Positions 37,879 through 62,965 of a stretch of DNA of 64,000 bases are shown piece after piece. A model generated the notes under the pieces. It saw only the letters and a list, made by a program, of their open reading frames with translations, was not told where the DNA came from and ran no database searches. Position numbers and translations under genes: made by a program. Each line of letters starts with the position of its first letter. The stretch's first letter is position 1. The DNA is from a virus (taxonomy: Duplodnaviria > Caudoviricetes), in the IMG/VR virus record IMGVR_UViG_3300020048_000007, positions 167,673 to 231,672 of that record, one strand, 5' to 3'.

Positions 37879-39744
37879 TTGCATACAAATGGGAATGATA
37901 TGATAAACATAGAATCAGATCCAATTGACTTGGATACTATCCTTAAAGCTTTCAAAGAACTAGCCAGTAATATAAACATTAATGATGACAGACAAAAATT
38001 AGAAGATGATGTGGTAGTATTATGTCAGACTTTCAGAGCAATAAAAGTAACTGGTTATGAAGACGGTGTAAGAGAAGCTTATCAAGAAGTATGCGAAAAA
38101 TTAGCAGACACGATATGTGATAGCCGATTCGATTTTGATAGACATTTCTGCTTTAAAATGCAAGAGTATGGCAATGTCTTCTCGAATCTCGTAGCATCAT
38201 GCGACCTAAAAAACACAGACAAGTATATCGAAAGACTAAGAAATGACGATCAAAAACACAGCATTTACAAAAGACTGTTTCTAACATCGTCTAGAAACAA
38301 GCAGGAGTATATTAAAGAGGTAGCTGACCACTACCATACAGATATACCGCTATACAACAATTGGGCGTCTAATTTATTCCAAATAATATCATGCGGCCTT
38401 CTGAATATGCACGTAAGAGATAATTTAATATTCTTAAGCAATTACATAATTGCAAACGAGTTCAAATGGGCTGCAGCAATCGGCGACGTGTATAACCATT
38501 CAGCATACACAGATAACCCATTAGAAAGACGATTAAAGGAACATATAAACGACCAATGCAAAGAACTTTTTCACCCAGACTTTGTACCCATAAACAATAA
38601 GACTAAAAGAATAGGCATTTTTACAGAAAATTTCTTCCAAGGTCACAGCACTCACAGGACAGTGGCGAAATATATTCATGCTTTGGCTGATAGATATGAA
38701 TTAATATTGCTGCACGGTGAACGATACAGGGTATTACCGCTGAACGTTAAATCCGATGAGAGAATATTCAAGGAAATTCACCAGATAAGCATTTTTGGGA
38801 CTTACGATCCATTTGAAATGTCCATAGTGGGGCCACAGAATCTAAAGCTGGACATATTGATATACCCAGACTGTGCATGCGACGCATTATCACTAATAAT
38901 GGCAAATATGCGGCTTGCACCAGCGCAGATGGCTATGACAGGAATGCCCACCAGCACATTTAATAGCGAAATAGATTACTTTATATCAGGCAGAGACGTA
39001 GAATGTCTTGAAAAAATCGATGACAATTATAACGAAAGAGTCGTTTGCTTGCCGGGTTTAGGGGCGATCCATACGAGACACACACCTATAAAAGAATTCA
39101 TAAAGCCAGAACCCAAAGACGACATTCTAATTGGCGGCTCATGGGTATGCCCCAAAACGCACCACTTTATGGCTTCCGCATTAGGTGAAGCGCTTAACAG
39201 AGTGAATAAAAAATGCACCTTGAGAGTGTTCGCAGGGCTAGCTTGGTTTACAGCCAACAGAGTATACGTCCCATATATCGATGAACTTGGAAAATATTTC
39301 AACGACAACATCACTCTTAGTATTATTGAAGGTGCAGAAGGGCACAAATATAACGACTTAATGGCAGAAGTAGATCTAGCTGTTGACAGTTACCCTTGGG
39401 GAGGTTCTAACACGGTCAGCGACTGTATCCAATTGAATAAACCAGTTGTGGTTTGGCAAGGCGACAAATGGTATAATAGAATCGGTCCAGCTATGTTAAG
39501 ACGCATAGGTCTAGAGAGTCTAATAGCTAAAAACAGAACAGAATATATTGATAAGACTATCAGATTGGTGGAAGATGATGCTTGGAGAATCGGGCTAAGC
39601 GAGCTGATTAGCGAGCATAACAAATCGGGACTTGTGGACTCCGAGATCTACAATAGTCAGAAAGGTGTAGAGGCATTTTCTACATTTATAGATAACGTGA
39701 TAAATGGTAACATACAACCAGGAAAAGAGCCACTTTTATTGTGA
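37879..39744 (+). CDS. GT41 (HMW1C/OGT-SPINDLY-like) protein glycosyltransferase
   Basis: HSTHR, LDILIYPD, MRLAPAQMAMTGMPTST, IDYFISG, ERVVCLPG, DLAVDSYPWGGSNT and RIG..ML..IGL..LIA....EYI. The start is probably ATG 37900. Confidence 0.85.
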   Translation: MHTNGNDMINIESDPIDLDTILKAFKELASNININDDRQKLEDDVVVLCQTFRAIKVTGYEDGVREAYQEVCEKLADTICDSRFDFDRHFCFKMQEYGNVFSNLVASCDLKNTDKYIERLRNDDQKHSIYKRLFLTSSRNKQEYIKEVADHYHTDIPLYNNWASNLFQIISCGLLNMHVRDNLIFLSNYIIANEFKWAAAIGDVYNHSAYTDNPLERRLKEHINDQCKELFHPDFVPINNKTKRIGIFTENFFQGHSTHRTVAKYIHALADRYELILLHGERYRVLPLNVKSDERIFKEIHQISIFGTYDPFEMSIVGPQNLKLDILIYPDCACDALSLIMANMRLAPAQMAMTGMPTSTFNSEIDYFISGRDVECLEKIDDNYNERVVCLPGLGAIHTRHTPIKEFIKPEPKDDILIGGSWVCPKTHHFMASALGEALNRVNKKCTLRVFAGLAWFTANRVYVPYIDELGKYFNDNITLSIIEGAEGHKYNDLMAEVDLAVDSYPWGGSNTVSDCIQLNKPVVVWQGDKWYNRIGPAMLRRIGLESLIAKNRTEYIDKTIRLVEDDAWRIGLSELISEHNKSGLVDSEIYNSQKGVEAFSTFIDNVINGNIQPGKEPLLL

Positions 39745-41427: not shown

Positions 41428-42717
41428 TCAGGGAGTGAGACCGTGTGATAGGCAGACTAGTTTTATTTGGTCTCTAAAGTCATTTACTGATCTTATGGTG
41501 ATTCCAAAGAATTCGGCCATGTGGTTGATTTTTGGGTCACCAGCTCCAAATCTGTCGCTGAATGATTCATATACTTCACCGTTTTGGATCAGTATATCGT
41601 AAACTTGTTGACAAAGTCCCTTTGGCAGGGATTTCCGTATGGTAGACAAAGCATCTTCGGCTTCTATTACTGAAACGTGATCTTCCAAGATCATTTTCTG
41701 GCCCTCAACAAAGCGGTGGCCTATCTGGTCTAGAGTAGAACCACCTTCGTCCTCGGTGACACTTAGTTGATTGTCCAGAACAGTTACGTGTTCTGGGCGA
41801 ATCACTACTGCTTCAAGCTCATCCTGACAAGAAGACTCATCCGTGATTTGGATAGATATCGTATTGTTATCGATACCTAATAATACACCATGTCTTATTG
41901 CTTTTTCTTTGATTTTAGAAAATTCAATAGAGAATTCTGGTGGCGTTTGCATTCCTAAAATATGGAACGCATAGTGACTATCTTCCTTGGCACAATTGTA
42001 ATCAATGTTCATCTGGGAGCATGTACTTGCTAGCTCTTCGGAGATGATGTAGTCTGGGCGACCGCTGATCAATTGTGGTACCTTTTTGTGTTCTTGGCGT
42101 TTGTTTTCTTTTAAGTGTTGTCTGAAGTAATTCCAGGCGAATTCACCAAAGAATTTCTTGAGCTGCTTTGGGTCGTTGACGATTGCTTCTGGGTTCTCAT
42201 ATTTTCTCTCGCCAGGGATTGGCTGTATTGGCGATATGATTTTTGACCCTGAGTACCCTTCTGCTAGAAGCAAGCGGTAATCGTCGTAGTCAATGAATGT
42301 TTCTTCGGTGGTGAGGTTGCCTTTTTCGGCTATTTTGACTTTATTACAGCTAGGGCAACATATGAGTTGCTGGTCTATGCTCTTGGCTTTACCTCTTTTT
42401 GTCAGATATTGTGTCTGCTGGCAGTTCTCGCATTTGAATGTGTAGTCGCGGTGGTAAAAGAGGTTTATTACTCCGCGCCATATTGCTATCTGGTATTCTA
42501 GCTCGGCTGCTGTAGAGTCGTCGGCGTAGTCTCCGCCGATTGTCACCCTGAATTGTTTCATTATCTCTGCTCTATGTCTTACCATTTCTTTATGATTTGA
42601 CACATATGTCACCATGTCATGCACTTTTTGTCGTTCGTCTTCTGAGATTTGCGACATGGTGATGTTTACCAATGAGCCTCTGAGATATAGCTTTGGCATT
42701 TGACGAACAATCGGCAT
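41428..42717 (-). CDS. sigma-70/ECF-like transcription factor with zinc-ribbon insertion
   Basis: Region-2-like ELEYQIAIWRGV...KKFFGEFAWNYFRQHLKENKR interrupted by CENC...CPSC; region-4-like HTH (INHMAEFFGITIRSV) at the C-terminus; GGAGG RBS. Confidence 0.55.
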   Translation of the reverse strand: MPIVRQMPKLYLRGSLVNITMSQISEDERQKVHDMVTYVSNHKEMVRHRAEIMKQFRVTIGGDYADDSTAAELEYQIAIWRGVINLFYHRDYTFKCENCQQTQYLTKRGKAKSIDQQLICCPSCNKVKIAEKGNLTTEETFIDYDDYRLLLAEGYSGSKIISPIQPIPGERKYENPEAIVNDPKQLKKFFGEFAWNYFRQHLKENKRQEHKKVPQLISGRPDYIISEELASTCSQMNIDYNCAKEDSHYAFHILGMQTPPEFSIEFSKIKEKAIRHGVLLGIDNNTISIQITDESSCQDELEAVVIRPEHVTVLDNQLSVTEDEGGSTLDQIGHRFVEGQKMILEDHVSVIEAEDALSTIRKSLPKGLCQQVYDILIQNGEVYESFSDRFGAGDPKINHMAEFFGITIRSVNDFRDQIKLVCLSHGLTP

Positions 42718-42792: not shown

Positions 42793-43554
42793 ATGGCTCA
42801 GTATTGCGACACGAAGAAACTCGAAAAGGTCTGGTTTAACTGGCTTCTATCCAAATCAGCACCCACGCTGGAGCCATACAGGAAAGCGGGTGTGTTGTGG
42901 ACTAAAGCCATAGGTCTCGTCGATGTGAAGGGTGAGGTGATTGTCAAAGGTGGTAAGACCTTCAAAAGTCCTACACATCCTATCAGATCGCACTGTATCT
43001 TGTCAAGATATCCGTTCTTTTTTACCACTTTTAATGGTAAGCCACAAGAACTTGCGTCCCAAATACATTATAACGAACATGGTGATTATACGACAACCCC
43101 CATTGCACTTTCAGAGATAGAAATAGTAAAAACCAAGCCGGAAATAAAAGACATAGAACAGATACTACTAAAAGATGGCTACATCCTAGATGCAGAAACA
43201 GGAAAAAGCTGGGAGTCCATGTTAATAGACATCAATAAAATGTGCCTCGGAATAGCATCTAAATTTCATCAAAAAACAGCAGAAGAATTGAATGATTTAG
43301 CTAACGAAGCATTATTGCAAGTAGCTAACAAATTATCTACAGATAGGCTGGTATATACTCCCGGAAGGGCACCAGTATTCAATTTATTAACCACCACTAT
43401 ACATCGATGCATGTTTTCAATTATGAATAAAAGGAAAAATCAAAGAGAAGGGCTTAACAGATTACTGCAAGACGCACAATCTGGGTCATTACCTCAAACT
43501 AACAGAAGCCTGAGACTCCAAACATTCACGACGAGAAAACATGAAAATCGTTAG
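42793..43554 (+). CDS. T4 gp55-like (late) sigma factor
   Basis: QYCDTKKL at the N-terminus and DLANEALLQV...YTPGRAPVFNLLTTTIHRCMFSIMNKRKNQ, paralleling gp55 region 2 (F.YFTQI...AF...I.KEK). No region 4. Confidence 0.6.
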   Translation: MAQYCDTKKLEKVWFNWLLSKSAPTLEPYRKAGVLWTKAIGLVDVKGEVIVKGGKTFKSPTHPIRSHCILSRYPFFFTTFNGKPQELASQIHYNEHGDYTTTPIALSEIEIVKTKPEIKDIEQILLKDGYILDAETGKSWESMLIDINKMCLGIASKFHQKTAEELNDLANEALLQVANKLSTDRLVYTPGRAPVFNLLTTTIHRCMFSIMNKRKNQREGLNRLLQDAQSGSLPQTNRSLRLQTFTTRKHENR

Positions 43555-44482
43555 TAACAAACACATTGTGCCAGCGGTAACAAAAAAACCAATTGACAAT
43601 ATCAAAATAGTAGTTAGTCCCCATAATAAAACTATAAGCACACTAAATGCTTATAATCAATCAGCCCATTTGAAAGTAATCCCAGCACAAATAGCACCGC
43701 AGATAAAAAACAAAGCAGTCATAGATAAAAGCCTAGTAAAAAGAACTCAAAACCCAAATAAACCAAAACCACCAGCATCGGTAACTTACGCTTCCGGCGA
43801 AGCACCAATCGAAAGCATACCCAAAATATACGGTATTAAAGACATAGGTAAAGGTAAGACATTAGTAGTCATAGCAAACGGTCCAAGTATAAACGAAATT
43901 GAATTGGAGAGACTAAAAGATAAGCCAGGCATCGATACCCTATCAATAAACAGACCGGACCCACGGGTCTGGCCAACAACATATTGGTCATTTTACGACC
44001 AATCACAGCTTGTGCGACACGAAGACCTGTATAATTATTATGAAGGCATCACCTTTCTTAGCACAGCCATCAAGAGAGACAAGGCCAGAAGCATAAAGTT
44101 CAAAAATTTTGGCAAAAAACAATTTAGCAGAGACTTAACAAAGGGATTATGTATAGGACGCACTAGCTGTTATGCTGCTATGCAACTTGCTTTATGGATG
44201 GATTACGATAAGATATTCTTCTTTGGGGTTGATATGCACCCAGATGGTATTGACGGTAAGCTCCATTTCTACGGGACAAATCCCGACGTAGACCCTGATA
44301 TTAGGAAAAAACGATTTAACTCAGAAGCAGAATACTTCGAATTTGCCGCAGATAACATGGAATACCAAGAGAGAAAGAGATTTCACTTTTGTTCGTCTTA
44401 CCTGACATGGCCCTTTAAATCGCGTTTCAATTACTTAGATCACAAGACTGCTATAGACGTGATTTTAGGGTCAATGCTATGA
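43541..44482 (+). CDS. DUF115/Maf-like glycosyltransferase-related protein
   Basis: LVVIANGPSI, TLSINR and AMQLALWMDYDKIFFFGVDM after a low-complexity N-terminus. Confidence 0.7.
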   Translation: MKIVSNKHIVPAVTKKPIDNIKIVVSPHNKTISTLNAYNQSAHLKVIPAQIAPQIKNKAVIDKSLVKRTQNPNKPKPPASVTYASGEAPIESIPKIYGIKDIGKGKTLVVIANGPSINEIELERLKDKPGIDTLSINRPDPRVWPTTYWSFYDQSQLVRHEDLYNYYEGITFLSTAIKRDKARSIKFKNFGKKQFSRDLTKGLCIGRTSCYAAMQLALWMDYDKIFFFGVDMHPDGIDGKLHFYGTNPDVDPDIRKKRFNSEAEYFEFAADNMEYQERKRFHFCSSYLTWPFKSRFNYLDHKTAIDVILGSML

Positions 44483-44490
44483 TTTGACTA

Positions 44491-44877
44491 ATGTATTATA
44501 AAACCATGAGATACTACATAGCATCTAGTTTAGACAATGTTGCCAATGTTCGTAACGCCATTATGAGGTTGACCGAAGCTGGGTTTAGTGTCACACATGA
44601 TTGGACAAGACACGGCAGGATCACAGACCCATCACAGTATCAAGCCATTGGCGAAGCGGAATATCAAGGCGTGATTGATGCAGATTTCATCGTGTTCTTT
44701 ATGCCGACTAGGTATGGAAGCCACGTTGAATTCGGTATAGCACTAGCCTCTAACAAACCGATTTATATGATCACGAACGGCGTGGAATTTGAAGAAAAAA
44801 CATTCTATCATCTACCATCCGTACATAGATACAGCGATTTAAATGAACTATTGCGCGAATGGGGAATAGACATATGA
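44491..44877 (+). CDS. nucleoside 2-deoxyribosyltransferase / nucleotide N-hydrolase-like protein
   Basis: YYIAS, DW, GVIDADFIV and GSHVEFG.ALA..KPIY (catalytic Glu motif). Confidence 0.8.
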   Translation: MYYKTMRYYIASSLDNVANVRNAIMRLTEAGFSVTHDWTRHGRITDPSQYQAIGEAEYQGVIDADFIVFFMPTRYGSHVEFGIALASNKPIYMITNGVEFEEKTFYHLPSVHRYSDLNELLREWGIDI

Positions 44878-45578
44878 GTGGAAGCGTATCAACTAAGCTC
44901 GAATTAGACGTAATGCAAGTCAATGAATTGCTTGAAGCAAGCGAGCTAATGTCTCAACATACGCTACCAGCCATGGTTATACATCCTGGCTTGGCCCCAG
45001 ACGCTTACGCAGCACGGATGAGAGTCAGAGGCAGGTACAAAATAATCATCCCTATTGATTGGCCAAAAGGCGAAAATTTTTCAAACTTGAAATTCAGGGG
45101 ACTGAGTAAGCAAGCATTGGAAGCTGATGGGTTCGAGATAATGGTCACGCCAGGTAAGACCCTTCTAGATACAAAAAATGAAATCAATGTTCTGACTGAA
45201 TTCATCAGGAACTTTCTGGGGGAATATGTGGAGGTTCGGTTTGTAATAGGCAATACTATTAAAACCGACGAGGAAATTGAAGTAATATGCAATGCCTTGT
45301 TAGGTATGAGGAACCCCACATTGTTGCGTAGCGATACTATCTTGAAAGTACAGCAAAATGTCATCAGTTCAGAGTCGCATCTAGCTTTTGTTAATAAGCT
45401 ACGCGGCTTTGGTCTTCCCACACCTATAAAGCTATCGGGGAATATGAATAACCTTAAATCTATCGCTTCAGCGCCAGCAGTTTTCAGGTATGCTGTCAAT
45501 GTCACACAAGCCAAGAATATTATTCGAGAGATCTTGCAGCAGCCCAGTGAATTGAAGGAAATCCTGTCCGACGTTTGA
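44859..45578 (+). CDS. DeoC (deoxyribose-phosphate aldolase)-like TIM barrel, catalytic Lys apparently replaced
   Basis: IDWPKG, ADGFEIMV, VRFVI, LLRSDT and IKLSGN align in order with DeoC (GFPLG, GADEIDMV, VKVII, FVKTST, VKASGG); Arg sits at the Schiff-base Lys position. Confidence 0.5.
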   Translation: MGNRHMSGSVSTKLELDVMQVNELLEASELMSQHTLPAMVIHPGLAPDAYAARMRVRGRYKIIIPIDWPKGENFSNLKFRGLSKQALEADGFEIMVTPGKTLLDTKNEINVLTEFIRNFLGEYVEVRFVIGNTIKTDEEIEVICNALLGMRNPTLLRSDTILKVQQNVISSESHLAFVNKLRGFGLPTPIKLSGNMNNLKSIASAPAVFRYAVNVTQAKNIIREILQQPSELKEILSDV

Positions 45579-45588
45579 GAATGACAAT

Positions 45589-45978
45589 ATGATACACGAT
45601 CATCTAATGGAAGCAATCAGGCAAGACGCCGACCTATTGACTAAATCCGATGCGTGGCTCGAAGAAGAGAAGAATTACTTCACAGAGCAGATGCGCAAAT
45701 CCATAGAAGAGCTCAAACCCATCCTCTTAGCTATAGCTATAAAACAGAAATTGCAGCAGCAGAACATGGTGCCTAGGCAGAAGTTCATAAGAGGCAGCAC
45801 AGGCCAGATAGAGAACGTTGTGATTGACTTCTGTAAGCTACCAGAAGCACTGAGAGATATGCTCAATAACGGCAGAGATACCTTAGATCAGTTGATAGCA
45901 GCTGGCAATATTGCCACATGGCAAATAGACGGGTATGACGTTAATACCTGCCTCCAAACGGTACCGAAAGGGATATAA
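45589..45978 (+). CDS. hypothetical protein
   Basis: 129 aa; TAATG stop/start overlap with the PurZ-like gene. Confidence 0.7.
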   Translation: MIHDHLMEAIRQDADLLTKSDAWLEEEKNYFTEQMRKSIEELKPILLAIAIKQKLQQQNMVPRQKFIRGSTGQIENVVIDFCKLPEALRDMLNNGRDTLDQLIAAGNIATWQIDGYDVNTCLQTVPKGI

Positions 45979-47078
45979 TGCAAAACGGCAAGCTCAATAT
46001 AGTCACAGACGGACAACACGGTAGCACAGGCAAGGGTCTAATCAACGCATATCTAGCCGATAAACACCGACCAGAAATACTCAGCACGACCAATATGGCC
46101 AACGCTGGCCACACCGCAGTCAACGAAAACGGCGAACCGTTCATAGCAAAAGCATTACCGTCATCAGCGGTCCTAAACAAATGGCGAGAGGGCTATAAAC
46201 CGACAGTATTCGTAGGAGCTTCATCTGCTTTTGATCTGCAACAGCTACTAAAAGAATGGAAAGAATGCGACAAGCCATTCACATTAATCCACCAGAGAGC
46301 TGGTGTCATTACACAAGAGCAAAAAGAAAGAGAATCCGGAGCATCAGGCACAAAGCACGTTGCTAGCACCATGCAAGGATGTGGAGCATTTCTAGCAGAT
46401 AAAGTCATGCGAAAAGCAGATTTAAAACTCGCTAGAGATTATGAAGAGCTTCAGCAATTCATGGCCATCAAAGAAGCACATACATGGCTAAAGGCACAGC
46501 TCGAAAGCTACGGTACAATTCTCCATGAAGGAAGCCAAGGATTCAGCTTAGATATAAGCCACGGTAGTCACTATCCAGAGTGTACAAGCCGCAGCACCAC
46601 TGCTATTCAAAACCTTGCTGATCTTGGTCTTAACCACAAGCAAGTTGGTGATGTGTACGTGGTTTTCCGGCCATACCCGATCAGAGTCGGCAATGTCTAT
46701 GAAAATGGGGTAGAAGTAGGCAACAGCGGTGGTTGCTACGGCGACAACCAAGAGACTACTTGGGAAGCAATAGCCGATGCTGCAGGTGCACCGCCAGAGA
46801 TTAAAGCCAAGGAGCTTACAACTGTCACAAAGCGACTTCGAAGGGTCTTCACGTTTAGTATGCAGCAAATCACCGAAGCTGCTGCAGCTAACGGTGCATC
46901 ATATCTTGCGCTGAATTTTGCTAACTATATTGACTGGACTTGCTATGGCACCAACGACAAGGCAAAATTGTCAAGCAAGATTTGGGAATTCATTCATTCA
47001 GTACAAGAGCAAACAGGCGTCAAGGTGGGGCTTGTTGGTACGGGTCCTCAGATAAACCACGTAATTGACCTAAGATGA
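45978..47078 (+). CDS. purZ: adenylosuccinate synthetase homologue with PurZ (2-amino-dAMP-succinate synthase) signatures
   Basis: DGQHGSTGKG (Ser at the PurA Asp13 position), NAGHT, ASTMQGCG, EGSQG, YPECTSR, RPYPIRVGN, SGGCY, TTVTKRLRRVFTFS and LNFANY (in place of the PurA TKLD/TMLD GTP-specificity motif). Confidence 0.8.
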   Translation: MQNGKLNIVTDGQHGSTGKGLINAYLADKHRPEILSTTNMANAGHTAVNENGEPFIAKALPSSAVLNKWREGYKPTVFVGASSAFDLQQLLKEWKECDKPFTLIHQRAGVITQEQKERESGASGTKHVASTMQGCGAFLADKVMRKADLKLARDYEELQQFMAIKEAHTWLKAQLESYGTILHEGSQGFSLDISHGSHYPECTSRSTTAIQNLADLGLNHKQVGDVYVVFRPYPIRVGNVYENGVEVGNSGGCYGDNQETTWEAIADAAGAPPEIKAKELTTVTKRLRRVFTFSMQQITEAAAANGASYLALNFANYIDWTCYGTNDKAKLSSKIWEFIHSVQEQTGVKVGLVGTGPQINHVIDLR

Positions 47079-47854
47079 TCAACCTATTCAAAGTCGCAAT
47101 TTACACAGACGAAGCGGGGTCTACCCTCGCTTCGTCTAAGAGTATTATATCAGAATTGAATATTCCAAATGTTATTTTTAGAAACGTAGACAATAGGAAT
47201 ATCCTAAAATATGACGAAACTCGTATAAAAGCTGTCCTCAAAGAGTTTGAGGATTTTACCGTAGCTGGTCTGTCGACAGATATCAGAATAGATGATATGT
47301 TGTCAGATGATCAGATTTTCGATTTACGGAAGAAGATTTACCTGATAAGACCAGTTTTTGTCAGATTCGGGTGGTCTGGAGAGAAATACTCTACGGAATT
47401 TATTGCTAGGATAATAGATATGAGTATAGAGAGCAATTTTATACCGGTTATTGAGTATGAGCATACGCATTTTAATTCTCCCAAAATCATAAAGGCACAG
47501 GACTGGGTCAGCCTTTTGTCATTATCGAAGCGATTGAGAGTGAATTTTGATCCTGTTCAGTATCTTATGCGGGTAAGAACTGATCCTATAGAGACGGTTT
47601 ATGTTCCGCTTAGGAATCAGGTGAGCGTTATCGATGTTAGAGATTATAAGATTGGCGTTGGGGCTAAGACGATTGGTTACGGGTCTATTGATTGGGCTGC
47701 GTTGTTAAAGAGACTATATTCCGATAAATATAACGGTTGGTTGGCTATTAAGCCGTCTCTGGGTATCATGCATGGTGATACTCTTGGTAGAGAGATGGTT
47801 TTTTCCCATGCTTTCAGCAATTTCAAAGAAACATTGGAGGAAGCGTGTCAATAA
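47075..47854 (+). CDS. sugar-phosphate isomerase/AP-endonuclease-2-like TIM barrel (degenerate metal site)
   Basis: IYTDE, FRNVDNRNI, RVNFDP and IDVRD...GYGSIDW...Y.GWLAIKP; ATGA overlap with purZ. Confidence 0.65.
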   Translation: MINLFKVAIYTDEAGSTLASSKSIISELNIPNVIFRNVDNRNILKYDETRIKAVLKEFEDFTVAGLSTDIRIDDMLSDDQIFDLRKKIYLIRPVFVRFGWSGEKYSTEFIARIIDMSIESNFIPVIEYEHTHFNSPKIIKAQDWVSLLSLSKRLRVNFDPVQYLMRVRTDPIETVYVPLRNQVSVIDVRDYKIGVGAKTIGYGSIDWAALLKRLYSDKYNGWLAIKPSLGIMHGDTLGREMVFSHAFSNFKETLEEACQ

Positions 47855-48060
47855 ATCTTAATGAGACGACAGCTGCTATAAGAAAAGCCGGAGCCGTCAA
47901 TGTTCGCGTTGTCCCTATGAAGGGTCAAACGATCGATGGTGAGCACCAGATTGAGATCCAGAACGTGCCAGGGACTTGGCAGACTATTTTGACTGGTATT
48001 AAAAAACCTATGGCTGAGAGCATCGTGCGTGACGCCACAAACAGGGTATTGTTAGGATAA
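47845..48060 (+). CDS. hypothetical protein
   Basis: 71 aa; GTG start with GGAGG RBS. Confidence 0.65.
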   Translation: MSINLNETTAAIRKAGAVNVRVVPMKGQTIDGEHQIEIQNVPGTWQTILTGIKKPMAESIVRDATNRVLLG

Positions 48061-48064
48061 CCTA

Positions 48065-48487
48065 ATGGCTGGCTCAGACGTATTCGAAGTCGCGCGCTAC
48101 AAAATCGGAGATGTGGCGTGGTGGGTGAATTTAACAGCCAAGGATGACCCACAAGAAGTCCCTGAAAAAGACGAATGGATGAAAAAACATCATCCTAAAG
48201 TCTTATTCGAACGCGGTTTATACAAGTCTCTGTGGAAGACGACAGCTGCTTTGCCTAAATTAGAGAAGACGGATTTTCTCAGTATAATGCATATATTGAC
48301 GTGTGAGATGAAAATAAGCGAATTCATCGTCTCAAGTATCGCAAGAAGCAACGATACCGGCGAATTCTTTTATTCTAATTTAAACACCGAATGGCTTCCA
48401 GAGTCCAGCATGTTTGACACTAAAGAGGCAGCTGCAAAGGAAAGAAAAAGGATCATAGGGTTGGTGAAAAAATGGTGTGATTCTTAA
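48065..48487 (+). CDS. hypothetical protein
   Basis: 140 aa; N-terminal YKIGDVAW resembles the YNPGDVVY of ORF 848..1162. Confidence 0.7.
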   Translation: MAGSDVFEVARYKIGDVAWWVNLTAKDDPQEVPEKDEWMKKHHPKVLFERGLYKSLWKTTAALPKLEKTDFLSIMHILTCEMKISEFIVSSIARSNDTGEFFYSNLNTEWLPESSMFDTKEAAAKERKRIIGLVKKWCDS

Positions 48488-48524: not shown

Positions 48525-51500
48525 ATGGCAACAGATCCGTTTGCGAATATAGGTTTTAGGGAAAACTTCTCCCAAGCTTACTACACAGAAATAATTATAG
48601 CTAGGAATAAAAAAAGCATAAGATTTGCTTCTTCCACTCCTACAGTAACCAACAGCTACCGTCAACTGATGGGTGGTAATTTATACAGAGTAGCGGAGTT
48701 ACTAAGTATAACAGGACCAAAACAGCCCGTAGCCATAGAAAACAAACTACAATATAAAAAAGACCAACCATATTCCCTCTACGATCAAGGCCAAATAAGC
48801 GACGAATTCAGAATACAGAACGTCGACCCTACCCTCTCGTTAGAAAACAGAGAAAGCTACTGGGCTAGAGTGAGCAGCCCATTAGGGAGAGAGTGGGCTG
48901 CCTACTACGCCGGAACAGATGCCAAAATAGGCTACATCGCGAATTTTATTGACAGAAATTTAGATGACTTCACGGGCACGAATTTTGCAGGATTTGTATC
49001 TGGAACACTTAATAATGACAACGATAAGCCCAACCTATATGACACTGTTAAGATAGGAAACATATTCGGCTCCACAGTTCAAGGAAGCCAAACTGCATCT
49101 GTGTCTGTTGAGCCAGGCATGTACAAGAGCTTCATCTCGTGCAAAGTCACACAAGACACGAGATATTTTGACCCCACAGGCGCAGAAATAATTCAAACTG
49201 CTGAATCAGGTGATTTATTCGCCGACGAGTTCGTGTTAAACTTTTATATATTCCCAGGTTATCACACATTTTATTATGGCTCTTGGAAGATAACAATCGA
49301 GCCGACTAATACGACAGGAACGCATAGGGTATTCATCCAGCATGCCAGATATTATGCCTCTGCTGAATACAATATGCAGCCAATAGTGAGGAAATTTAGT
49401 GCAGACTTTGATTGGGATGGGACTTTAAGCGAGTTTAATCTTATTACTATTAAATACCTATTCACTCCAAGACCTCAGGGGAGTGCGTCGACTGGCACAA
49501 TTAACATTGGTACTTCTACTAGTAAAGTAAGTCTATTTGTTAATGCTGTTCCTGTCTTCGCAAGTGGTAGTGATTCGATATGGCCCCCATCTTATCCAAA
49601 AGTCTACCGTGGCTCAAGCGGTGCGGGATTGCCTAGTTATACACAGAAACCATATATTGACCTAAAGATGGCCCCAGATAACACGCCTGTCTTCATAGTA
49701 TGGGATAATGCAGTACCTTTCGGAATCACAAAAAGCGAATTCGCATTTATTCTTATAACTGACAAGCTGGTGGATCTTAAAGGTCTTTACACTCACCTTA
49801 TTAGATTCGAAAGGATAATGCCTAATCTCACAATTGAGACGACCCCTAACCCAGTTGTTCCTCCAACACCCCCAGTAGGCGGTATTACTTCGAAATTTTA
49901 CAACAGGGCTACTTATAGTCTTGCCCCAGCGGTATTGATGGAATTAAACAAGATACTCTTAGACTTCATGCTGTCCCAGCCAAATATTAGAATCTCTAGC
50001 GGACCACTAGAATCAGACCCGATTCTCAATAGGATGATGGCTACTGCAAGTACCACCAAAAAATATTCGTCAGCGATAGAATACGACAAAAACGTTTTAG
50101 ATCTCTTAAGAGAGCCAATTTTGGTTATAGATGATACGAATTCGCTATTGCCATATTATTTGCTAGAGTATGGGTTACCTAATGAGAACGTCGGGCGACT
50201 TCGAGTTAGAATAACAGAGATAAAATCACCAAATGTAATCGATGAAGTATCATCAGAAATTGAACTACAGGGCTACGCAGAGTACATTGTTAAAACCATT
50301 ACCACAGACAGCTGGACAGCTGGCACGGTGACGTTGTCTTCGATTTTTAGATTCTTGGTCGATGATAGTGGAATGTACGAGCCAAAATTAGATCCGTATG
50401 TCGTCAACAATCCTAATCAGCTTAGTCTTAATGAGTTTGGACAAGTATATGTTGAGAGTATGCGTGTTACTTGGGCTTTTCCAAGGGACGTGAACAGTCC
50501 TTTTGTTATTCCAGATAGCTTTTTTACTAGGTATAACAGGGTGGTGGATGTAGTAACCCAGGAAGTAGAAATAGCACAGCTCTTTGATACGGAGAGAGAC
50601 TTATTACCAAATGGGTTGCCGGTCGATCTGAATATGTCTAATAAGCCGGGCACGACCCCTCCAATATCACCACCTAACCCTGGAACAACTCCAACACTAT
50701 ATTATAATCGAGCTGAATGGAGCATACTGCCTGCTAAGGTAGCGGAAATAGAAGAGGTCATCAAAGATTTTATGACCAGTAGAGAAGTTATTAAATCGGC
50801 TGGGGAAGATTTTTATTTGGTGATGCAGAACGCCCTGTTGACCGATAATAGAGTGGTCAAGACATTCGAACTTGGTATAGGGATTGATCCGCACTCAGAA
50901 GAAGGAATCCTTGATGTAGTCGACACTCCTCTTGCCACTAGCACAGATGTAGAAATATTCTATACACCAAAGGATGCACTTGGAATTCCAAACAGCAAAG
51001 ATTATGCGATAAGGTTATCCGCCAAAATACCATTAAATGAACCTAACAGGAATCTTTCTGAAGTAGTCTTAAAAAGCTCTGCTACATATCGTTTTGATAT
51101 ACCATCTAATTTTGACAATCCAGATGGTGATTTGTCTGAATATGGTGCTGGGCAATTTAATATTACCCTTGATTTTCTTATTATTCAGAATGATGTTGCG
51201 AGACCAATTAATAGTGATAAAAACCCGTATATCGTCGGTAACAATGGTGAATTCGAACTTGACTCAGCTTACAGAATGGGTGCAGTGACCGCGACTGTTG
51301 TTGCTACTTTCGGTTCTGATACTGGTTTCTTTGAGGACTATCTATTAGATTATAATCCAATTGAAAGCAATCAGTTCGGGGCTGGAACTTTAGTGGACAT
51401 AACGCCCTTCATTACTGGTGGCGTTCCAGTTTCCATAAATATGTCAAATGCTCCAGGCACAGTTGGAATTGGTGTGCCAGGCGGCACGCCGTTACCACCA

Positions 51501-54500
51501 TCTGGTGGGTCATTATCACCATCCAAGAATTATACCGCAACATTCACCCTGGCAGACCAGCCATTTAAAATATTCGAGATAGACAATTTAAAAGGGCTGT
51601 TAAATTTTTACAGTTTCCAAGACATTCTAAACTACACATTATATGATCTTCTTCTAACCCAATATTCTCAGAAAGTACCCATTTCGAGATACGCGTCTGA
51701 CGTTTTCAAGCTAGCCCTAATCGAACAGGGTAAGATACCTGGACACCCATCAGATCAGACCGCAGGATTTTTAAAAGCGTATACTGCCTATTTTAATGAC
51801 CAGGATTGTGTGTTACCGGAAGGCAGTCCGCTAGACCCCTCTTGCCAGGCATTGACCATTGAGTATATCATAGCACCTAAAGAGACGAATAAGGTATTAA
51901 CATTAGGCACAAATCTCCTGAAAATGGGCATGGTTATTAATCTAGGGTGTAATGGTGGTGCCAATTGCGTTGTTGTTGGCGGCAAACAGATTCCTAGAGT
52001 GAATGGTGTGCCTACGGCCCAGTTAAGTTATGATTTTACCATGGAGATGATAGTAACAGAAGACACATCAGGTGTGACGCCACCGACGAGTCCAAGTATA
52101 ATCGTGACATATAATCTTTCAGGGCCCATAGCGCTCTGGGGTTTTTTAATAGGACAATACTCTCTTATTAATGTTTCTAGATACACTGGTGGTGCATACA
52201 ATAAAGTCATAGCGTATGATGAAGCGACTATGAAATCAGGCACAAATTTTCTAGTAAAAGCTTTCGGCACCGATTCACCACTATATGAAGCCGGTAACAT
52301 AGCGCCAATTAAATTGTCTGCTAGAGGGCAGAGGCTTTGGGGTTCCGATCCGGACGATTTTACTAATGACTACACACAAATCGACTTTTTTGTGACAGCT
52401 TACATAGACACAAGATTTACAAAAACACTAACTGGCTCGTTAATTAGTGACCTAGATGCTCCCAACACAACACGAGCAGCAATAGTTTATGTGATAGAGC
52501 CTGTAACCGTACCATTTCCAAGATTCGACGGCACGATAGTTCCCTCTAAAAAATTACCAACAGTTACCTATACTGATTACACGAATGTATTAATGACCAA
52601 GCGTTTTCCCTCTGACGGCGGAGACGGCGGAGACGGCGGAGACGGCGGAGACGGCGGAGGCGCGACGGTCAAGAAGTACAACGGCAAATGGAATTTAGGC
52701 CCAGATTTCATAAGAGCAATAGAAAACACATACATCGAATTTCTGCAAGTACCCACATTTAATTGGCGATTTGACAATGTGGCGTCAAAGGGCTTAGGAA
52801 GCTATGATAAGCTTTTGTGGGAATTAGTAAGTGGAGGTGTCAATCCAATCGTCAATAACTGGCAGACTGCCGGATACCCAACTGGAGTTGGTCTGCAAAG
52901 ACCAATAGACTCTAGATCAGTCCAATATTGGATGGAAGACGTATTAAAATACAACGGCGTCGGAACCGGACCGACCGGAGCACCAGTCACACTAGCTTAC
53001 TCATCCAGCTTCCAAGGATCTAATTTAAAATTAACAGTTTATATGAATATAGCAGTTAGAGACATAAGATTAGAAGCTGAAAAGTCAACTAGTGTAACAT
53101 TGGACATCTCTAACATATATGGCGAGGTGTCTGAAGGTGGAATAAATAAAACCTATCTGTTTGCGAATAGAAGTACTTCATTTACCATATCTGTAGACGT
53201 ATACGAAGCGATGCAAACATTCAGCGCTCCGCAAGAAATGATGCTCGCACAGACAGTTCCCGACAGTTACATCTGGCAACCACCCAAATACATTATAGTC
53301 AACAGTGACAGCCTCAAATACAATGATGGCCTAAACGACGTATATTACTTCAGAGACGGCTACCAAACCGCTCTAAGACAGACCTACTCATTCGTTGGGA
53401 CAAGAACATCACAAAACGACGTAATAGCAACATATAGGCACGGCGATGCCAGCTCATACGACCCAGAAACTACAAACTACGACGTAGTGGTTGGCGGTTT
53501 CGACTTGGTATACCATAAAGGCACACCCAACACTCTAACGTTACTACCGATCGAAATAATAGAGTCTAAAACCAAAAAGAAATTTGTGTGCTTCGGCAGC
53601 ATCAGAGAAGTAGGAAATATATTAAACGCCTCAATAAAATCAAACGTTGTGATGACATTCATAACAGATAACGGATCGACATCCGACACAGACGGAGCAT
53701 ACTGGGTATACGACAATACCTGGAAAGAGTGGTCACATACAATTCCGATCAATACCGGCGACGAGCTTAACTTATACTGCTACAGCTGCCTCACTAATCA
53801 GGTTGGAACACTAGAAACCAATATCAATATAATCACCAAATTCAACGTTAAACCAACTCCCAATAACCCACCGCCATCAGTAGATCCCACCGAAATATTC
53901 CCAGCAGAATTTTCTTACGACCAACTAATCCAAAAAGTACCGGCACTACCAGTTGTATACCCCCCAGGCTTCCCAAATCCATCAGTATATCGGTTTGAAT
54001 ACCCTAAAACGATGGCAGTAAAGGCCAAAAGCTCAACAGATACATATGAGTTCTTTCTAGAATCTATTGACAGCACACAACGCATTGCTACTTATAAGCT
54101 GTATGAATTCGTGAATAACGAACTGACGGTAGGTGGTTTCACTGTAGAGTACACGCCACACGTATCATTCAAGCTAAGTAAAGTAGACGTGTACTCAGCA
54201 GATTTAGATAGAGATTTCGAATGCTTTGGAATAATTCACATAATCTATGACAATGACGGTGCCTTATTGTCGGCTGATACATGGGAAATAATACCCACAT
54301 TTGAAGACCCTAATGATTTCGCTAACTGGTACTTGACTGTCGTACAAGACCCGTTGACTGGTGGTAACCATTTTAACACCTATTGCAACGATGGTACGAA
54401 TTTTAAATGCTCAGCAAATAACTTGAAATTCGTGATGCGTATAGACGCGAATTTTAAGCATTATGCTCCAGAGCCTCCAGCAATCATTGTCGCTCCTCCC

Positions 54501-57500
54501 GTATCAGGTCCGCCAATACCATTGCCCATATACAGCACCGGTTATAACGTTGCTTCAGACAGGCAGATTGCATTCATTGGTGAGCCTGATAGTAACTGGA
54601 AAATCACCAGTTTCATTACGGGTCCAGAAGCTGCTCCTACGCATTATTGGAAACTAAACAATGGCTTAACTGATAGTGTGGGTAGTCTACCATTTATAGC
54701 ACATCCGGCTATGCTAATTGTACAGGGAGCAAACAGGGTACGATTCGGACGCATTGCTGATTTTACTTACAAGGTAGGTGCTGTTTGGTCTAATATACAG
54801 ACGCAAACGACATCTGAGAATGCTATTTATCCTAATAACCCTGGAATAGTTAGCGGCACTACAACATTAGGGAAAGGAATAGAACACGGTTTATATGCTT
54901 ATGTGGCTTCACAGACCTCTAACCGAATTTTAGATTCAAATGCTTGGACGATTACTGGATGGCTAAAAATGCCAATTGCGCCATATGTTTCAAATTATGG
55001 CTCTAGTATACCTGAAGAAATGGTATTTAGTATCTCCCCATTCACACCATTACCGCTTCAGCCCCCATCAGTCACCAGTTCATATGTTTTTGGTCCTGAA
55101 CTCATTGTCGATAGTGCCTCCAGAATATCAGTTTATGTGAATTATGCTTTTAGAGACACTACACCTTTTGAATCGTACCCGTATGGCGAGAAATTCCCTA
55201 AGAAAGCTGGCCATATATATGTTTATTTTAAATCAACCCGCACCAGCGAACCGACCTTCGCAGGAAAAGAGACTGGGCTAAATGCAGTATTAGTAGATGA
55301 AGCTGGTGACCTCATCTATAGGGATTTATTAACAGGAGACATAACGTCTGAAGGGGGCATTACATCAAGGTCCTGTAATTTCCTTGAGATACCTGGACCA
55401 GATTTAATAAGAGCGAATGTCTGGTCATTCATATCAATAAAAAAACAAGAAGCATTCAATGACAGGCTGGTAATAAGCATAAATGGCCGAGATTACACAG
55501 CAATATTTCAGTCTGCTATCGTCACAGATGAGCTGTTAAAGAAAATCAATTTCATTCAAGCCATGGCTCCGCTCGACGATTTAAGAACATACGACTCAGA
55601 GCTCTCAGACTTAGAATTAAAACTGATATCGCGAGTCGGCAGCGCAGAAGGAGGGGTAGTTCCACGAGAATATAGCCCCGGTGGAGTGGTATCAGGGGTC
55701 ATATCAAACCAAGTTTTCGCTTACGACCACTTCAACCCTTCAGAAGAGATCCAGCCATACTGGTGGCCAGCCGGATATACTTATGATAACACCATCGTGC
55801 CAGATCGCACAAATCTCTACCAACAATACAATGCTAGATGGGTGTCGCCACCGCCTAAGCTGGGCATTGACGCATCACCAGTAGCTAAATCCTTCCATTA
55901 TGCCACCGAATTTGATCTTACAGGCATAACTCTCAATACAGTCAAGATATCGTTCCTATGCTCTGGTGATGATAGAATAATTGATATAATTGTTAACGGC
56001 ACGAGCACAGGCTATAATAACATCTCAGAGATCGGCGGGCTGCCAGCTACCAACACAACAGCATATGATAACTTGAGATATAGGAACCTCTGGGACGTAA
56101 AGCTACCGACCGGTAGTGGTCATCTCTTCGTTCAAACAATTAATACGATCGATATAGTGGTAGAGAATCAAGCTATCACAGATCTGTCAGTGGCTACCAA
56201 CCCAACTGGGTTATACGTGTACGTTTACGAGAAAACCGGTGTTCCATTACCTATACTGGAAGACCCAAGAGCAATCATTTTAGACATAGTCGATACTGGC
56301 CACAATAAGATATTGAATCAACCAATACCTATAGGTTCGTCAGATAGCAATTGGGTGATAGAGAAAGTAGAAAGACCAGAAATCGCTCCTTCTCACTATT
56401 GGAAGTTTAATAATAGCCTAAATGATCTTGCTCCAGCTGTTGGCTCAACACCATTACCATTTGTGCAATACCTGGTACAGTCTACTTTTAAAGCTGGTGT
56501 GGTAGTCGGTAATGCTGGAAATCCGCAAAACACCGGGGTAGTTCAGAACGCAATATTTCCTTTTATTCCTGGTTCACCAACATCTGAATATGGCAAGCAC
56601 ATCCTTGTTATATCTGAAGGAGGTACAAATAGTAAGCTCATTAATTCATCAGTAGGCTGGACGATTACCGGCTGGATTAAAATACCATTATACGATGGGT
56701 CCATACCGTCACTCGCGGAATTAACAACAATATCTGCTATTTCTCTTAACGTCTTTGCTGCAAATACGCCAACCATGAAGTTTAAGTTTTGTTACTTTGG
56801 TGCTGGTAATAGAAAAACAGGAGCTCTCTATTTAGACTTTACTTATGGCGAATTGGATAGTGGCAGTGCTATGACAATACCTGACCAATCCACCAACTTC
56901 ATCGAGATAATACCGAATCAAGGGGCGTTCTCTCAGAACGAATGGGTATTCTTTTCAATACGCAGAACTCCACGGACTACCGCTCCTTCTGGAGCTATAT
57001 CTGATGGCACAATAATATTAACAATCAACGGTATTGATTACACTATAAAAGAACCATATATCCCAGGAGCCAGCTCGACTTTCGACACTATGAGCTGGAT
57101 TGATTTTAGCTGCCCCGCAGATGATTTGAGAATATACGGAAATAAGGTACTGTCTAACTCTGAACTTAAATTCATTTCCAAATACGATTTCACATCAATC
57201 ATACCAGGCGAAAATGACCACGCCACCGCAGTCGGCGTACCAAGAGAATACCTGAACACATACATTACCGCGCCTTCCCCCGTCTTCGCCTACGATTACG
57301 TGAACCAATATAGCCCAGCACAACCATACTGGTGGCCACAAGCAGTTCCCAACCAAGCCTCACTCTACGGAGAATACAAAGCACGATGGGTATCGCCACC
57401 ATCAACCACAGGTATCAACATAAGCAGACTAGAAAACACAGGATTCCACTATTACAAAACAACATTTAACCTAGCCAATATCGACCTAGAAACAGTAAAA

Positions 57501-62345: not shown

Positions 62346-62965
62346 TATTCGGAACGTGTAATGTCCAATATGATGGTAGAGCTACGAGCACACTTATTGA
62401 TGGGAAGTACCTCATCATCATTAAGAGTGATGGTAGCCTCATAATTCATGATAGTAAGATGCTAAAGCCTAAGAACTATATAGGCCCAAAGGCTAGAATC
62501 TCTATGGTCGGCAATCAGATAATTGCTGAGTGTAAGAAGGAGAAGATTATTATCAATTTGTTAGAAGCTGAGAGCTTGCATTTAGCTGGCTGGGAAAATA
62601 AGAATATTGAGTTGACACGAACTGAGTTTGAGTTGCGTGATAAGCTCGCTGAGAATATTGAGTGGTACTTGGGCGTTGTGCCGGTTAAGGTGGAGAAGGA
62701 GTTTAAGACGAAGTATGGTGTTATTGATCTTTTGGTGGTGGATGATTGCGAGGTTACGCATATCATTGAGGTGAAGAGGGATAAGGCTTCTGTTTCTGCC
62801 TGTTCTCAGCTTTATCGGTATTATCAGAATCTTGGTGCTGCTAGGGTGATGGGTTATATTGCTTCGCCTAGGATCACTGATAGTGCTATGATGTTTTTGG
62901 AGGAGTATGGGTTAAAATTCATACCAGTCAGCTTCGAAGATGTATGTTCCTCTGGGGATGGTTGA
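62330..62965 (+). CDS. nucS: NucS/EndoMS-like mismatch endonuclease
   Basis: C.VQYDGRA.S.L..G..LIIIKSDGSLIIHD...PKNY (NucS N-domain), TEFELRDKL and EF.T..G.IDLL...IIEVKR (PD-(D/E)xK), plus QL.RY. Confidence 0.88.
   Translation: MESQIIFGTCNVQYDGRATSTLIDGKYLIIIKSDGSLIIHDSKMLKPKNYIGPKARISMVGNQIIAECKKEKIIINLLEAESLHLAGWENKNIELTRTEFELRDKLAENIEWYLGVVPVKVEKEFKTKYGVIDLLVVDDCEVTHIIEVKRDKASVSACSQLYRYYQNLGAARVMGYIASPRITDSAMMFLEEYGLKFIPVSFEDVCSSGDG

Follow-up and report, generated by a model that had tools for sequence, protein, structure and literature searches.

A possible Z-nucleotide module in freshwater T4-like jumbo phages that joins PurZ to an NDT-superfamily protein and two barrel proteins

A conserved gene block of freshwater T4-like jumbo phages encodes PurZ and may constitute a Z-nucleotide module in which an NDT-superfamily protein drains dAMP in place of DatZ and MazZ; we hold this reading tentatively, at a little less than an even chance. 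Z, or 2-aminoadenine, takes the place of adenine in the DNA of some phages, and PurZ converts dGMP, aspartate and an NTP to dSMP. The block lies in a window of 64,000 nucleotides, the whole stretch of DNA analyzed here, which belongs to a 231,672-bp record (G000) from an uncultured jumbo phage. The genes in question are as follows.

43541..44482, + strand: DUF115/MptE- and Cst-II-like gene (313 aa; GNGPS ... GxD motifs)
44491..44877, + strand: NDT-superfamily protein (128 aa; PF05014, E 1.7e-5)
44874..45578 (longest ORF from 44859), + strand: barrel of the DERA (beta/alpha)8 fold (about 234 aa; fold match)
45589..45978, + strand: small conserved protein (129 aa; stop codon overlapping the start of purZ)
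45978..47078, + strand: PurZ, predicted N6-succino-2-amino-2'-deoxyadenylate synthase (366 aa; phrog_1211, 2.6e-61)
47075..47854, + strand: xylose-isomerase-like (AP_endonuc_2-like) TIM barrel (259 aa; PF01261, E 7e-7)
47845..48487, + strand: pair of small conserved genes downstream (71 aa and 140 aa; synteny)

The initial annotation had described the five genes from 44491 to 47854 as a coupled run with stop/start overlaps. An ORF check found the run as read then, and its junctions, when re-read, were as claimed: ATGA overlaps join the NDT-like to the DERA-like gene (44874-77) and PurZ to the TIM barrel (47075-78), a TAATG overlap joins the small gene to purZ (45976-80), and between the DERA-like and small genes there is a spacer of 10 nt. 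The folds and families assigned at that time were also correct, as Pfam, PHROG, PDB and Foldseek matches show. The 129-aa protein gave only sub-threshold chance matches in Pfam and PHROG and an empty Atlas search; its gene is kept in most relatives and is missing from L008-type and L176-type loci. The upstream gene (43541..44482) matches PF01973 at an E of 3.8e-5, under the cut-off, and its family profile matches Cst-II weakly in the PDB. It occurs in all surveyed related loci except L010 and L026, where the block is rearranged, and is syntenic with the module; whether it belongs there functionally is uncertain. The two downstream genes travel with the block, being syntenic in nearly all related loci, and had zero matches in a Pfam search.

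Its residues and its place in the tree mark the 366-aa protein as a genuine PurZ. Besides the PHROG match listed above, it matches PF00709 (3.4e-29) and the PurZ structures 7odx (1.9e-40) and 6fm1 (3.4e-40) at full length. Its P-loop reads GQHGSTGKG, with serine at the position of Asp13 in PurA; every jumbo-phage copy has this serine, whereas E. coli PurA and at least 60 short archaeal PurAs have aspartate. In an ML tree, the Ser-type clade (support 91/100) contains the window PurZ, and the jumbo-phage sequences are monophyletic (100/100) and group with phiVC8 PurZ and BpsS-140 (100/96). The PurZ of L027, at 34% identity, falls outside the jumbo clade and represents a second PurZ subtype in the same slot. 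In some relatives there is a second gene of the PurA family besides purZ; the one copy read, in G008, has an Asp-type P-loop.

Our survey of the neighborhoods of related purZ genes, which the initial annotation had proposed, found the linkage conserved. About 25 related jumbo-phage contigs retain the module, with protein identities of 20-63%; it was found in all three of the metagenome contexts sampled, and it survives local rearrangement. In this lineage the DERA-like barrel constantly accompanies PurZ: every locus showing both genes has them, with PurZ of the Ser type, no more than 3 kb apart, and the two occur together even in G012, which has no NDT-like gene, in L173, where PurZ is inverted, and in L176, which has neither the TIM barrel nor the small gene. 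In the rearranged loci L010/L164, L173 and L176 the two stay paired while the flanks shift or drop out. The TIM barrel gene is absent from L177 as well as L176. Unrelated flanking genes (41428-42717, 42793-43554 and 48065-48487) are conserved equally.

No HD-domain dATPase or MazG-like gene had been seen near purZ, and this was borne out across the entire record. Searches for HD, HD_3, YfbR-like, MazG, MazG-like, DUF550 and DUF5664 found none in its 231,672 bp, and phiVC8 DatZ as a phmmer query had zero matches there, the record being 64% complete with 36% of the genome missing. The Pfam models were checked with phiVC8 DatZ as a positive control, which matches PF12917 at 1.7e-14. The three HD proteins that were found (YhaM-like, a CCA-adding enzyme and an HD_4 protein) are not of the DatZ type. 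A canonical datZ elsewhere in the genome had been named as an observation that would count against an alternative route; DatZ-type HD (YfbR-like) proteins were found neither in the record nor in four complete relatives (G001, G008, G012 and G015; complete relatives measure 341-408 kb). MazG, MazG-like, DUF550 and DUF5664 were absent from the complete relative G001, G008 is without MazG-like, and PurB was found in neither the record nor G001 and G008. The sole dUTPase-family gene (G000:20528-21646) lies about 190 kb off and carries a fused thymidylate kinase (Tmk) domain.

By its profile, the NDT-like protein is a separate branch of the NDT superfamily, with the CMP N-glycosidases MilB and BlsM as its closest relatives. 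Its Pfam match is under the curated cut-off, and homologues point to a start at 44506. The family profile matches BlsM, BcmB and MilB in the PDB at 1e-5 to 1e-4. These CMP or hydroxymethyl-CMP N-glycosidases (4jem, 4jen, 5vto), whose substrates are nucleotides rather than nucleosides, are the best solved relatives and share the nucleophile-region motif P..G(S/T)HxE(I/L)G, but at low identity and in the C-terminal half only. The NDT-like family differs from them in keeping an N-terminal Tyr, the residue that excludes ribose in NDT, Rcl and DmtZ (PMC12884076). This Tyr, E52, E75 and a DWT motif are invariant in 14 of 14 sequences; Tyr, Glu52 and Glu75 match the superfamily triad (Tyr6, Asn77 or Asp, and Glu103 in DmtZ), with Glu52 assigned to the acid position by approximate alignment.

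DmtZ is the NDT-family dAMP N-hydrolase and dR5P transferase of PurZ0 actinophages, and its Asp12, proposed to read the 6-amino group, is essential for activity (PMC12884076). At this position the window protein has Asp and its relatives F, N, Q, R, H, Y, S, G or E, and the residue that follows is an Asn invariant in the family. The sequence does not by itself reveal a selectivity for adenine. Comparison of the NDT-like and DmtZ profiles with hhalign gave a probability of 50.6% (E 1.6e-4), no better than for MilB/BlsM, and tblastn of the NDT-like protein against 50,697 phage records recovered no DmtZ. We predict that the protein is a 2'-deoxynucleoside 5'-monophosphate N-glycosidase or transferase, and an analogue of DmtZ. 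Hydrolysis of dAMP by an NDT protein had been put forward as a new route, which it is not: the description of DmtZ in PurZ0 phages dates from 2026 (PMC12884076), and a 2025 preprint ties NDT genes to dZ contigs (10.1101/2025.10.22.683976). The proposal that the NDT-like protein replaces DatZ stands in part. The lineage has no DatZ, but the NDT-like gene is dispensable, because the complete 341-kb genome G012 lacks it while retaining PurZ and the DERA-like gene. NDT-like relatives at about 31% identity, with all motifs kept, occur in phage contigs that have no PurA-family gene (L052 and L053).

The DERA assignment comes from structure. An AlphaFold2 model of the barrel (pLDDT 83, pTM 0.82) had DERAs as all 50 of its top 50 Foldseek matches; VIA-align superposed it on 6d33 with Z 21.3 and an rmsd of 2.6 A over 210 residues, Z values were 17-21 against DERAs and 15.6 against the next fold, and an AFDB cluster search agreed. 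Searches of Pfam and of PDB sequences found no match, there was no sequence-level match to any DERA, and hhalign gave no significant alignment. Residues were mapped by hand from the strand order of the model and the E. coli sequence. The barrel has a (F/W)PxG motif after strand 3 (its WPKG aligns with FPHG of E. coli DeoC) and, by the manual alignment, equivalents of D16, N21 and K201, the last being K191 in IK(L/V)SGN on strand 7. It differs from DERA in having Arg157 at the position of the Schiff-base Lys167, at the end of strand 6, in 15 of 15 members, and Arg at the Lys137 position in 14 of 15. Among the members, R157 and E93 are present in 15/15, R127 in 14-15/15 and K191 in 14/15, and about 20 strand-end residues are invariant, which suggests that the active site is live; many of the conserved residues are gone from the L176 copy. 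The family comprises 138 proteins (E <= 7e-74 for all 120 listed) and, among the matches listed, is confined to the present phage lineage. The caution that Lys is replaced by Arg was thus well placed. Because of this replacement the barrel is probably no standard aldolase, and cleavage of deoxyribose-5-phosphate by the simple DeoC mechanism, which the initial annotation had entertained, is unlikely, since every member lacks the Schiff-base lysine.

The second barrel (model pLDDT 89) matches PF01261 under the cut-off. Its best matches are sugar-phosphate isomerases and epimerases, with Art22 (2e-13), UlaE and D-tagatose 3-epimerase (DTE) in Foldseek and sugar-phosphate isomerases in AFDB as well. 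Like these enzymes it has the TIM fold and, as the first two metal ligands, Glu and Asp (E127 and D159), but no His is conserved in its strand-7 motif (IDVRD); at the fourth ligand position 9 of 13 members have Glu and 4 of 13 Lys or Arg, the window protein having Lys; ligands were mapped by motif rather than by superposition. The Glu-Asp-His-Glu site is thus incomplete, as had been cautioned. A D-x-K-x-G-x-G loop is invariant in the family and specific to it.

In the pathway that we propose, PurZ would condense dGMP and aspartate to succino-2-amino-dAMP, which host adenylosuccinate lyase and host kinases would convert to dZTP; the lyase would be the host's because no phage PurB was found. The NDT-like protein, in a lineage without DatZ and MazZ, would drain adenine deoxynucleotides at the monophosphate level, freeing the base and deoxyribose-5-phosphate as a 2'-deoxynucleoside-5'-monophosphate N-glycosidase, and perhaps acting as a dR5P transferase as well. 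The weakest step is that of the barrels. Through non-canonical chemistry they would most likely bind, or act on, deoxyribose-5-phosphate or another phosphorylated intermediate akin to it; with the Schiff-base Lys and the full metal site missing, no activity is demonstrable for either. Because the DERA-like gene is tied more tightly to PurZ than to the NDT gene, its product may serve PurZ directly. Against this explanation, the NDT-like protein is, in profile comparisons, not detectably closer to DmtZ than to other NDT members, and a monophosphate glycosidase requires prior conversion of dATP to dAMP, while the sole Dut is distant and Tmk-fused.

The nearest described system is the DmtZ, DutZ and PurZ0 pathway of actinophages Ghobes and Wayne (Poubanne et al., NAR 2026, PMC12884076). 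In both, a PurZ-family synthetase stands beside an NDT-superfamily protein with a Tyr/acid/Glu triad, DatZ and MazZ are absent, and the proposed logic is destruction of dAMP by N-glycosidic cleavage. The jumbo-phage module differs in that its PurZ falls in the tree with phiVC8 (PurZ) rather than with PurZ0, its NDT-like protein is not detectably an orthologue of DmtZ, no DutZ is adjacent or fused, its two conserved barrels have no counterpart there, and it is carried by a T4-like jumbo phage, not by a 45-kb siphovirus. With the canonical PurZ-DatZ-MazZ/DUF550(-DpoZ) clusters of phiVC8, S-2L and SH-Ab 15497 it shares the PurZ subfamily and the serine P-loop, but it has no DatZ, MazZ, DUF550, DUF5664 or adjacent PolA; in phiVC8, DatZ lies two genes past PurZ.

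It is possible, although we consider it unlikely, that the DERA-fold barrel is PurZ's essential partner and the NDT-like and TIM proteins optional accessories, with an undescribed Z step, for example on succino-2-amino-dAMP or an adenine deoxynucleotide, carried out in the Arg/Arg/Lys/Glu pocket. The proximity of the two genes wherever both are seen, the invariant strand-end residues, the confinement of the family to this lineage among the matches listed, and the failure to find a phage PurB fit such a role. However, no enzyme of that fold is known to perform such chemistry, host PurB is enough in other Z phages (PMC12884076), the L176 copy is stripped of many conserved residues, and one phage lineage supplies all loci, so that co-occurrence is confounded by shared descent. 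We regard as equally doubtful the claim that the Arg-for-Lys barrel is a new enzyme, obligately coupled to PurZ, for a step, either in making Z nucleotides or in keeping adenine out, that no described Z-phage enzyme performs.

Shared descent might even account for the whole linkage: the gene order would be inherited and the NDT-like, DERA-like and TIM proteins would act in general nucleotide or sugar metabolism, for instance with the neighboring Cst-II-like and GT41-like glycosyltransferase genes. All loci do form one syntenic clade with equally conserved unrelated flanks, NDT-like relatives occur in phages without PurZ, and sugar-active genes are nearby. We nonetheless find this improbable, because PurZ and the DERA-like gene remain joined in rearranged loci while flanks move or vanish, translational coupling spans the enzyme genes, PurZ subtypes are swapped within one slot, and the chemistry fits, an N-glycosidase product and the DERA fold both concerning deoxyribose-5-phosphate. 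Least probable of all, in our estimate, is that the PurZ homologue yields no Z genome and alters purine pools otherwise, through partial substitution, a signaling or anti-defense nucleotide, or ribonucleotide metabolism. Neither the usual adenine-excluding enzymes nor a DpoZ-type polymerase is evident, the replicase belongs to family C (L021 has a DnaE fragment) with only a short, weak PolA-like ORF, and the second PurA-family genes, including the Asp-type one of G008, would be in keeping with it. Against it stands the P-loop serine, shared by 100% of the PurZ and PurZ0 sequences from phages that Poubanne et al. analyzed (PMC12884076). The jumbo-phage clade also nests among characterized PurZ enzymes. 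To our knowledge, DpoZ is missing from cyanophage S-2L as well.

A full-text literature search found no paper pairing PurZ with jumbo, huge or giant phages. The characterized Z-genome phages that we know of are all small siphoviruses or podoviruses, with two helper sets, DatZ/MazZ or DutZ/DmtZ. If the DNA of this lineage of abundant freshwater jumbo phages, with their family-C replicase, truly contains Z, it would represent a third, independently assembled solution, made of PurZ, an unrelated NDT branch and two barrels without a described role. Should the DERA-fold barrel prove to be the enzyme considered above, it would be the defining partner of this third, jumbo-phage type of Z-DNA pathway. 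How a DnaE-type polymerase handles dZTP would then become a question, the module would offer new enzymes for non-canonical nucleotide production, and the picture of "functional convergence" in Z-DNA biosynthesis would be extended.

ORF calling reproduced the five genes of the module at 44491-47854, as the initial annotation had placed them, and reading the junctions confirmed the three stop/start overlaps that it had claimed:

44874-77, junction of the NDT-like and DERA-like genes, ATGA overlap
3' side of the DERA-like gene, 10-nt spacer
45976-80, junction of the small gene and purZ, TAATG overlap
47075-78, junction of purZ and the TIM-barrel gene, ATGA overlap

No convincing plus-strand terminator was found between the module genes. 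PurZ was the sole module protein recognised in a PHROGs search, and the small 129-aa protein had no match in Pfam or the ESM Atlas. An upstream 313-aa protein (43541-44482, +) gives weak Cst-II/MptE-like (DUF115) signals, and a nearby gene (37879-39744, +) encodes a GT41-like C-terminal domain (E 9.5e-6); both may be involved in glycosylation and have no connection with Z (2-aminoadenine). Directly 3' of the module lies a single 4606-aa ORF (48525-62345, +) that matched no Pfam family, followed by a NucS/EndoMS-like mismatch endonuclease in which both domains are recognised (62330-62965, +; E approximately 1e-14 each). Deamination of Z leaves G opposite T, so this last gene would deserve attention if Z is present in the DNA.

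The identity of the 366-aa PurZ is secure. It matches PHROG 1211 at 2.6e-61 and the solved S-2L and phiVC8 PurZ structures at approximately 1e-40, and its P-loop, GQHGSTGKG, carries Ser in place of Asp13 of PurA, a hallmark that PMC12884076 reports in 100% of the PurZ and PurZ0 proteins it analysed from phages. Among the 95 sequences that we gathered, this residue is Ser in every phage or prophage-like sequence and Asp in every archaeal short PurA. In a maximum likelihood tree (LG+C20+F+G4), the ten jumbo-phage sequences included form a single clade (support 100/100) nested in a group that also holds the PurZ proteins of phiVC8 and Bacillus phage BpsS-140 (100/96), while Ghobes PurZ0 falls apart from this group. 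In one related contig (L024, IMGVR_UViG_3300045256_000294; G010:C1:106354-108570), PurZ is in three homologous pieces separated by two insertions of approximately 1.2 kb; because a single 1232-aa open frame, uninterrupted by stops, runs through all the pieces, the insertions are probably two inteins. Some relatives also carry a second, longer PurA-family gene (L058, G008:C1:258596-259693; G014:214584-215573; G015:209314-210315). The copy in G008, a complete relative, has the Asp-type P-loop GPGDGGKGG, which indicates that PurA-like and PurZ enzymes coexist in one phage.

The usual helper enzymes of PurZ appear to be missing, and not only from the neighbourhood, where the initial annotation had noted no HD-domain dATPase or MazG-like gene. 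Using models that recognised phiVC8 DatZ as a positive control, we found no HD, HD_3, YfbR-like, MazG, MazG-like, DUF550, DUF5664 or Lyase_1 protein in the whole 231,672-bp record, which CheckV estimates to be 64% complete and whose final 64 kb make up the window. The source is an uncultured jumbo phage; the relatives recovered reach 341-408 kb, and two of them (G001 and G012) have terminal repeats. A canonical datZ elsewhere in the genome would contradict the idea of a replacement for DatZ, but no DatZ-type HD protein was found in that record or in the complete relatives (G001, G008, G012 and G015), and the other partner families were absent from each complete relative searched for them (G001, G008 or both). 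Three HD proteins were rejected as DatZ, being YhaM exonuclease-like in G001, a CCA-adding enzyme in G012 and HD_4 in G015; a weak phmmer match of Ghobes gp51 at G000:84134-84511, in the window's own record, was dropped for want of Pfam support.

A dUTPase homologue is present in all five records searched. In the window's record it is a 372-aa fusion of thymidylate-kinase and dUTPase domains (G000:C1:20528-21646; L015:778-1896), outside the window and approximately 190 kb from purZ, and it might be a dATP/dGTP diphosphatase akin to DutZ. Relatives do not share the fusion, their Dut open frames spanning 149-251 aa, and we know of no residues diagnostic for DutZ. Approximately 2 kb before the window there is also a short family-A polymerase-like ORF (about 400 aa; G000:C1:165108-165827, -), a weak match with no exonuclease domain, which is kept in relatives (G001:254902-255600, approximately 9 kb from PurZ, and G008:95393-95764).

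A survey of gene neighbourhoods around related purZ genes had been proposed as a check on the linkage. Using PurZ, a flanking gene and the NDT-like and DERA-like proteins as search seeds, we recovered about 25 distinct viral contigs in which the linkage is kept, with exceptions; three metagenome contexts sampled from NDT-like matches had the same gene order. Across these relatives PurZ shows 54-63% protein identity, the DERA-like protein 36-50%, the NDT-like protein 27-47% and the TIM barrel 20-33%. Most informative are the exceptions. The NDT gene has moved away in one genome (L010/L164), two loci (L176 and L177) are without the TIM and small genes, and PurZ is inverted in another (L173). In L027 and a subclade, the same slot between orthologous neighbours is filled by a second PurZ subtype (P-loop GAGSSGKG, 30-36% identity to the window's PurZ; L027, L167-L171, L173 and G012, at L174:3-200:-), and L027 PurZ forms a long branch outside the jumbo clade. 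In the complete 341-kb genome G012, PurZ adjoins the DERA-like gene and the NDT-like gene is absent altogether.

The NDT-like protein matches PF05014 at E 1.7e-5, below the Pfam cut-off; the characterised Ghobes DmtZ scores more poorly still (0.0026). A profile of ten homologues matches the nucleotide N-glycosidases BlsM, BcmB and MilB at 1e-5 to 1e-4 and shares with them the motif P..G(S/T)HxE(L/I)G around the nucleophile. An N-terminal Tyr, the acid E52, the nucleophile E75 and a DWT motif are invariant in 14 sequences. The link to DmtZ itself is weak: tblastn found no DmtZ, profile-profile comparison gave a probability of 50%, and the window copy has Asp at the equivalent of DmtZ Asp12, a position that varies among relatives. 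For these reasons we file the protein as an NDT-superfamily member that plausibly works like DmtZ, and not as DmtZ. Relatives at 31% identity with all motifs kept occur in two phage contigs without a PurA-family gene. One of them (L052, IMGVR_UViG_3300025518_000002, 8001-8456; 32% identity, all motifs kept) lies beside DUF3310 and dCMP-deaminase-like genes in a smaller phage contig, a 49.6-kb fragment (approximately 31% complete) whose available sequence has no PurA-family gene.

The 239-aa DERA-like protein had no sequence-level match to Pfam, and a profile search of PDB sequences was empty. Its AlphaFold2 model (pLDDT 83) retrieved only DERAs among the top 50 Foldseek hits and aligned to DERA with VIA-align at Z 21.3 and rmsd 2.6 A; an AFDB cluster search agrees with this fold. 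Because hhalign did not reach significance with E. coli DeoC (only the strand 2-3 region aligned in local mode, and global mode failed) and no PDB sequence matched, catalytic residues were mapped by manual alignment guided by strand order. DeoC D16, N21, FPHG and K201 then correspond to D17, N22, WPKG and K191, while K137 and K167 correspond to R127 and R157. R157 is present in 15 of 15 members, distant ones included, which bears out the earlier suspicion of a Lys-to-Arg change. The protein thus does not look like a canonical class I aldolase, although about twenty invariant polar residues at the strand ends look like a live pocket. A similar caution about the 259-aa TIM barrel also held: its model (pLDDT 89) is similar to isomerases and epimerases of sugar phosphates, and the metal site keeps Glu and Asp ligands but has no conserved His, with Lys as fourth ligand in the window copy.

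DmtZ has been described as an enzyme of the NDT family that hydrolyses dAMP and transfers deoxyribose-5-phosphate, the partner of DutZ in PurZ0 actinophages (PMC12884076, February 2026), and PF05014 proteins have been linked to dZ-enriched contigs, one showing a dA preference (2025 preprint, 10.1101/2025.10.22.683976). Neither describes jumbo phages or a DERA-like or TIM-barrel partner, and among the papers that we searched, none combines PurZ with jumbo-phage terms.

The initial annotation had pointed out that some NDT-superfamily enzymes release deoxyribose-5-phosphate, the DeoC substrate. The NDT-like gene is not universal in the lineage, and the DERA-like protein accompanies PurZ far more consistently than it accompanies the NDT gene, which weakens the idea that it merely disposes of the glycosidase product. 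A predicted complex of the NDT-like and DERA-like families gave no verdict (score 0.00) and counts neither for nor against binding. Predicted from its genes, the window's phage lineage likely has a Z genome. The NDT-like protein would most plausibly strip a deoxynucleoside monophosphate of its base or exchange that base, dAMP being the obvious candidate target.
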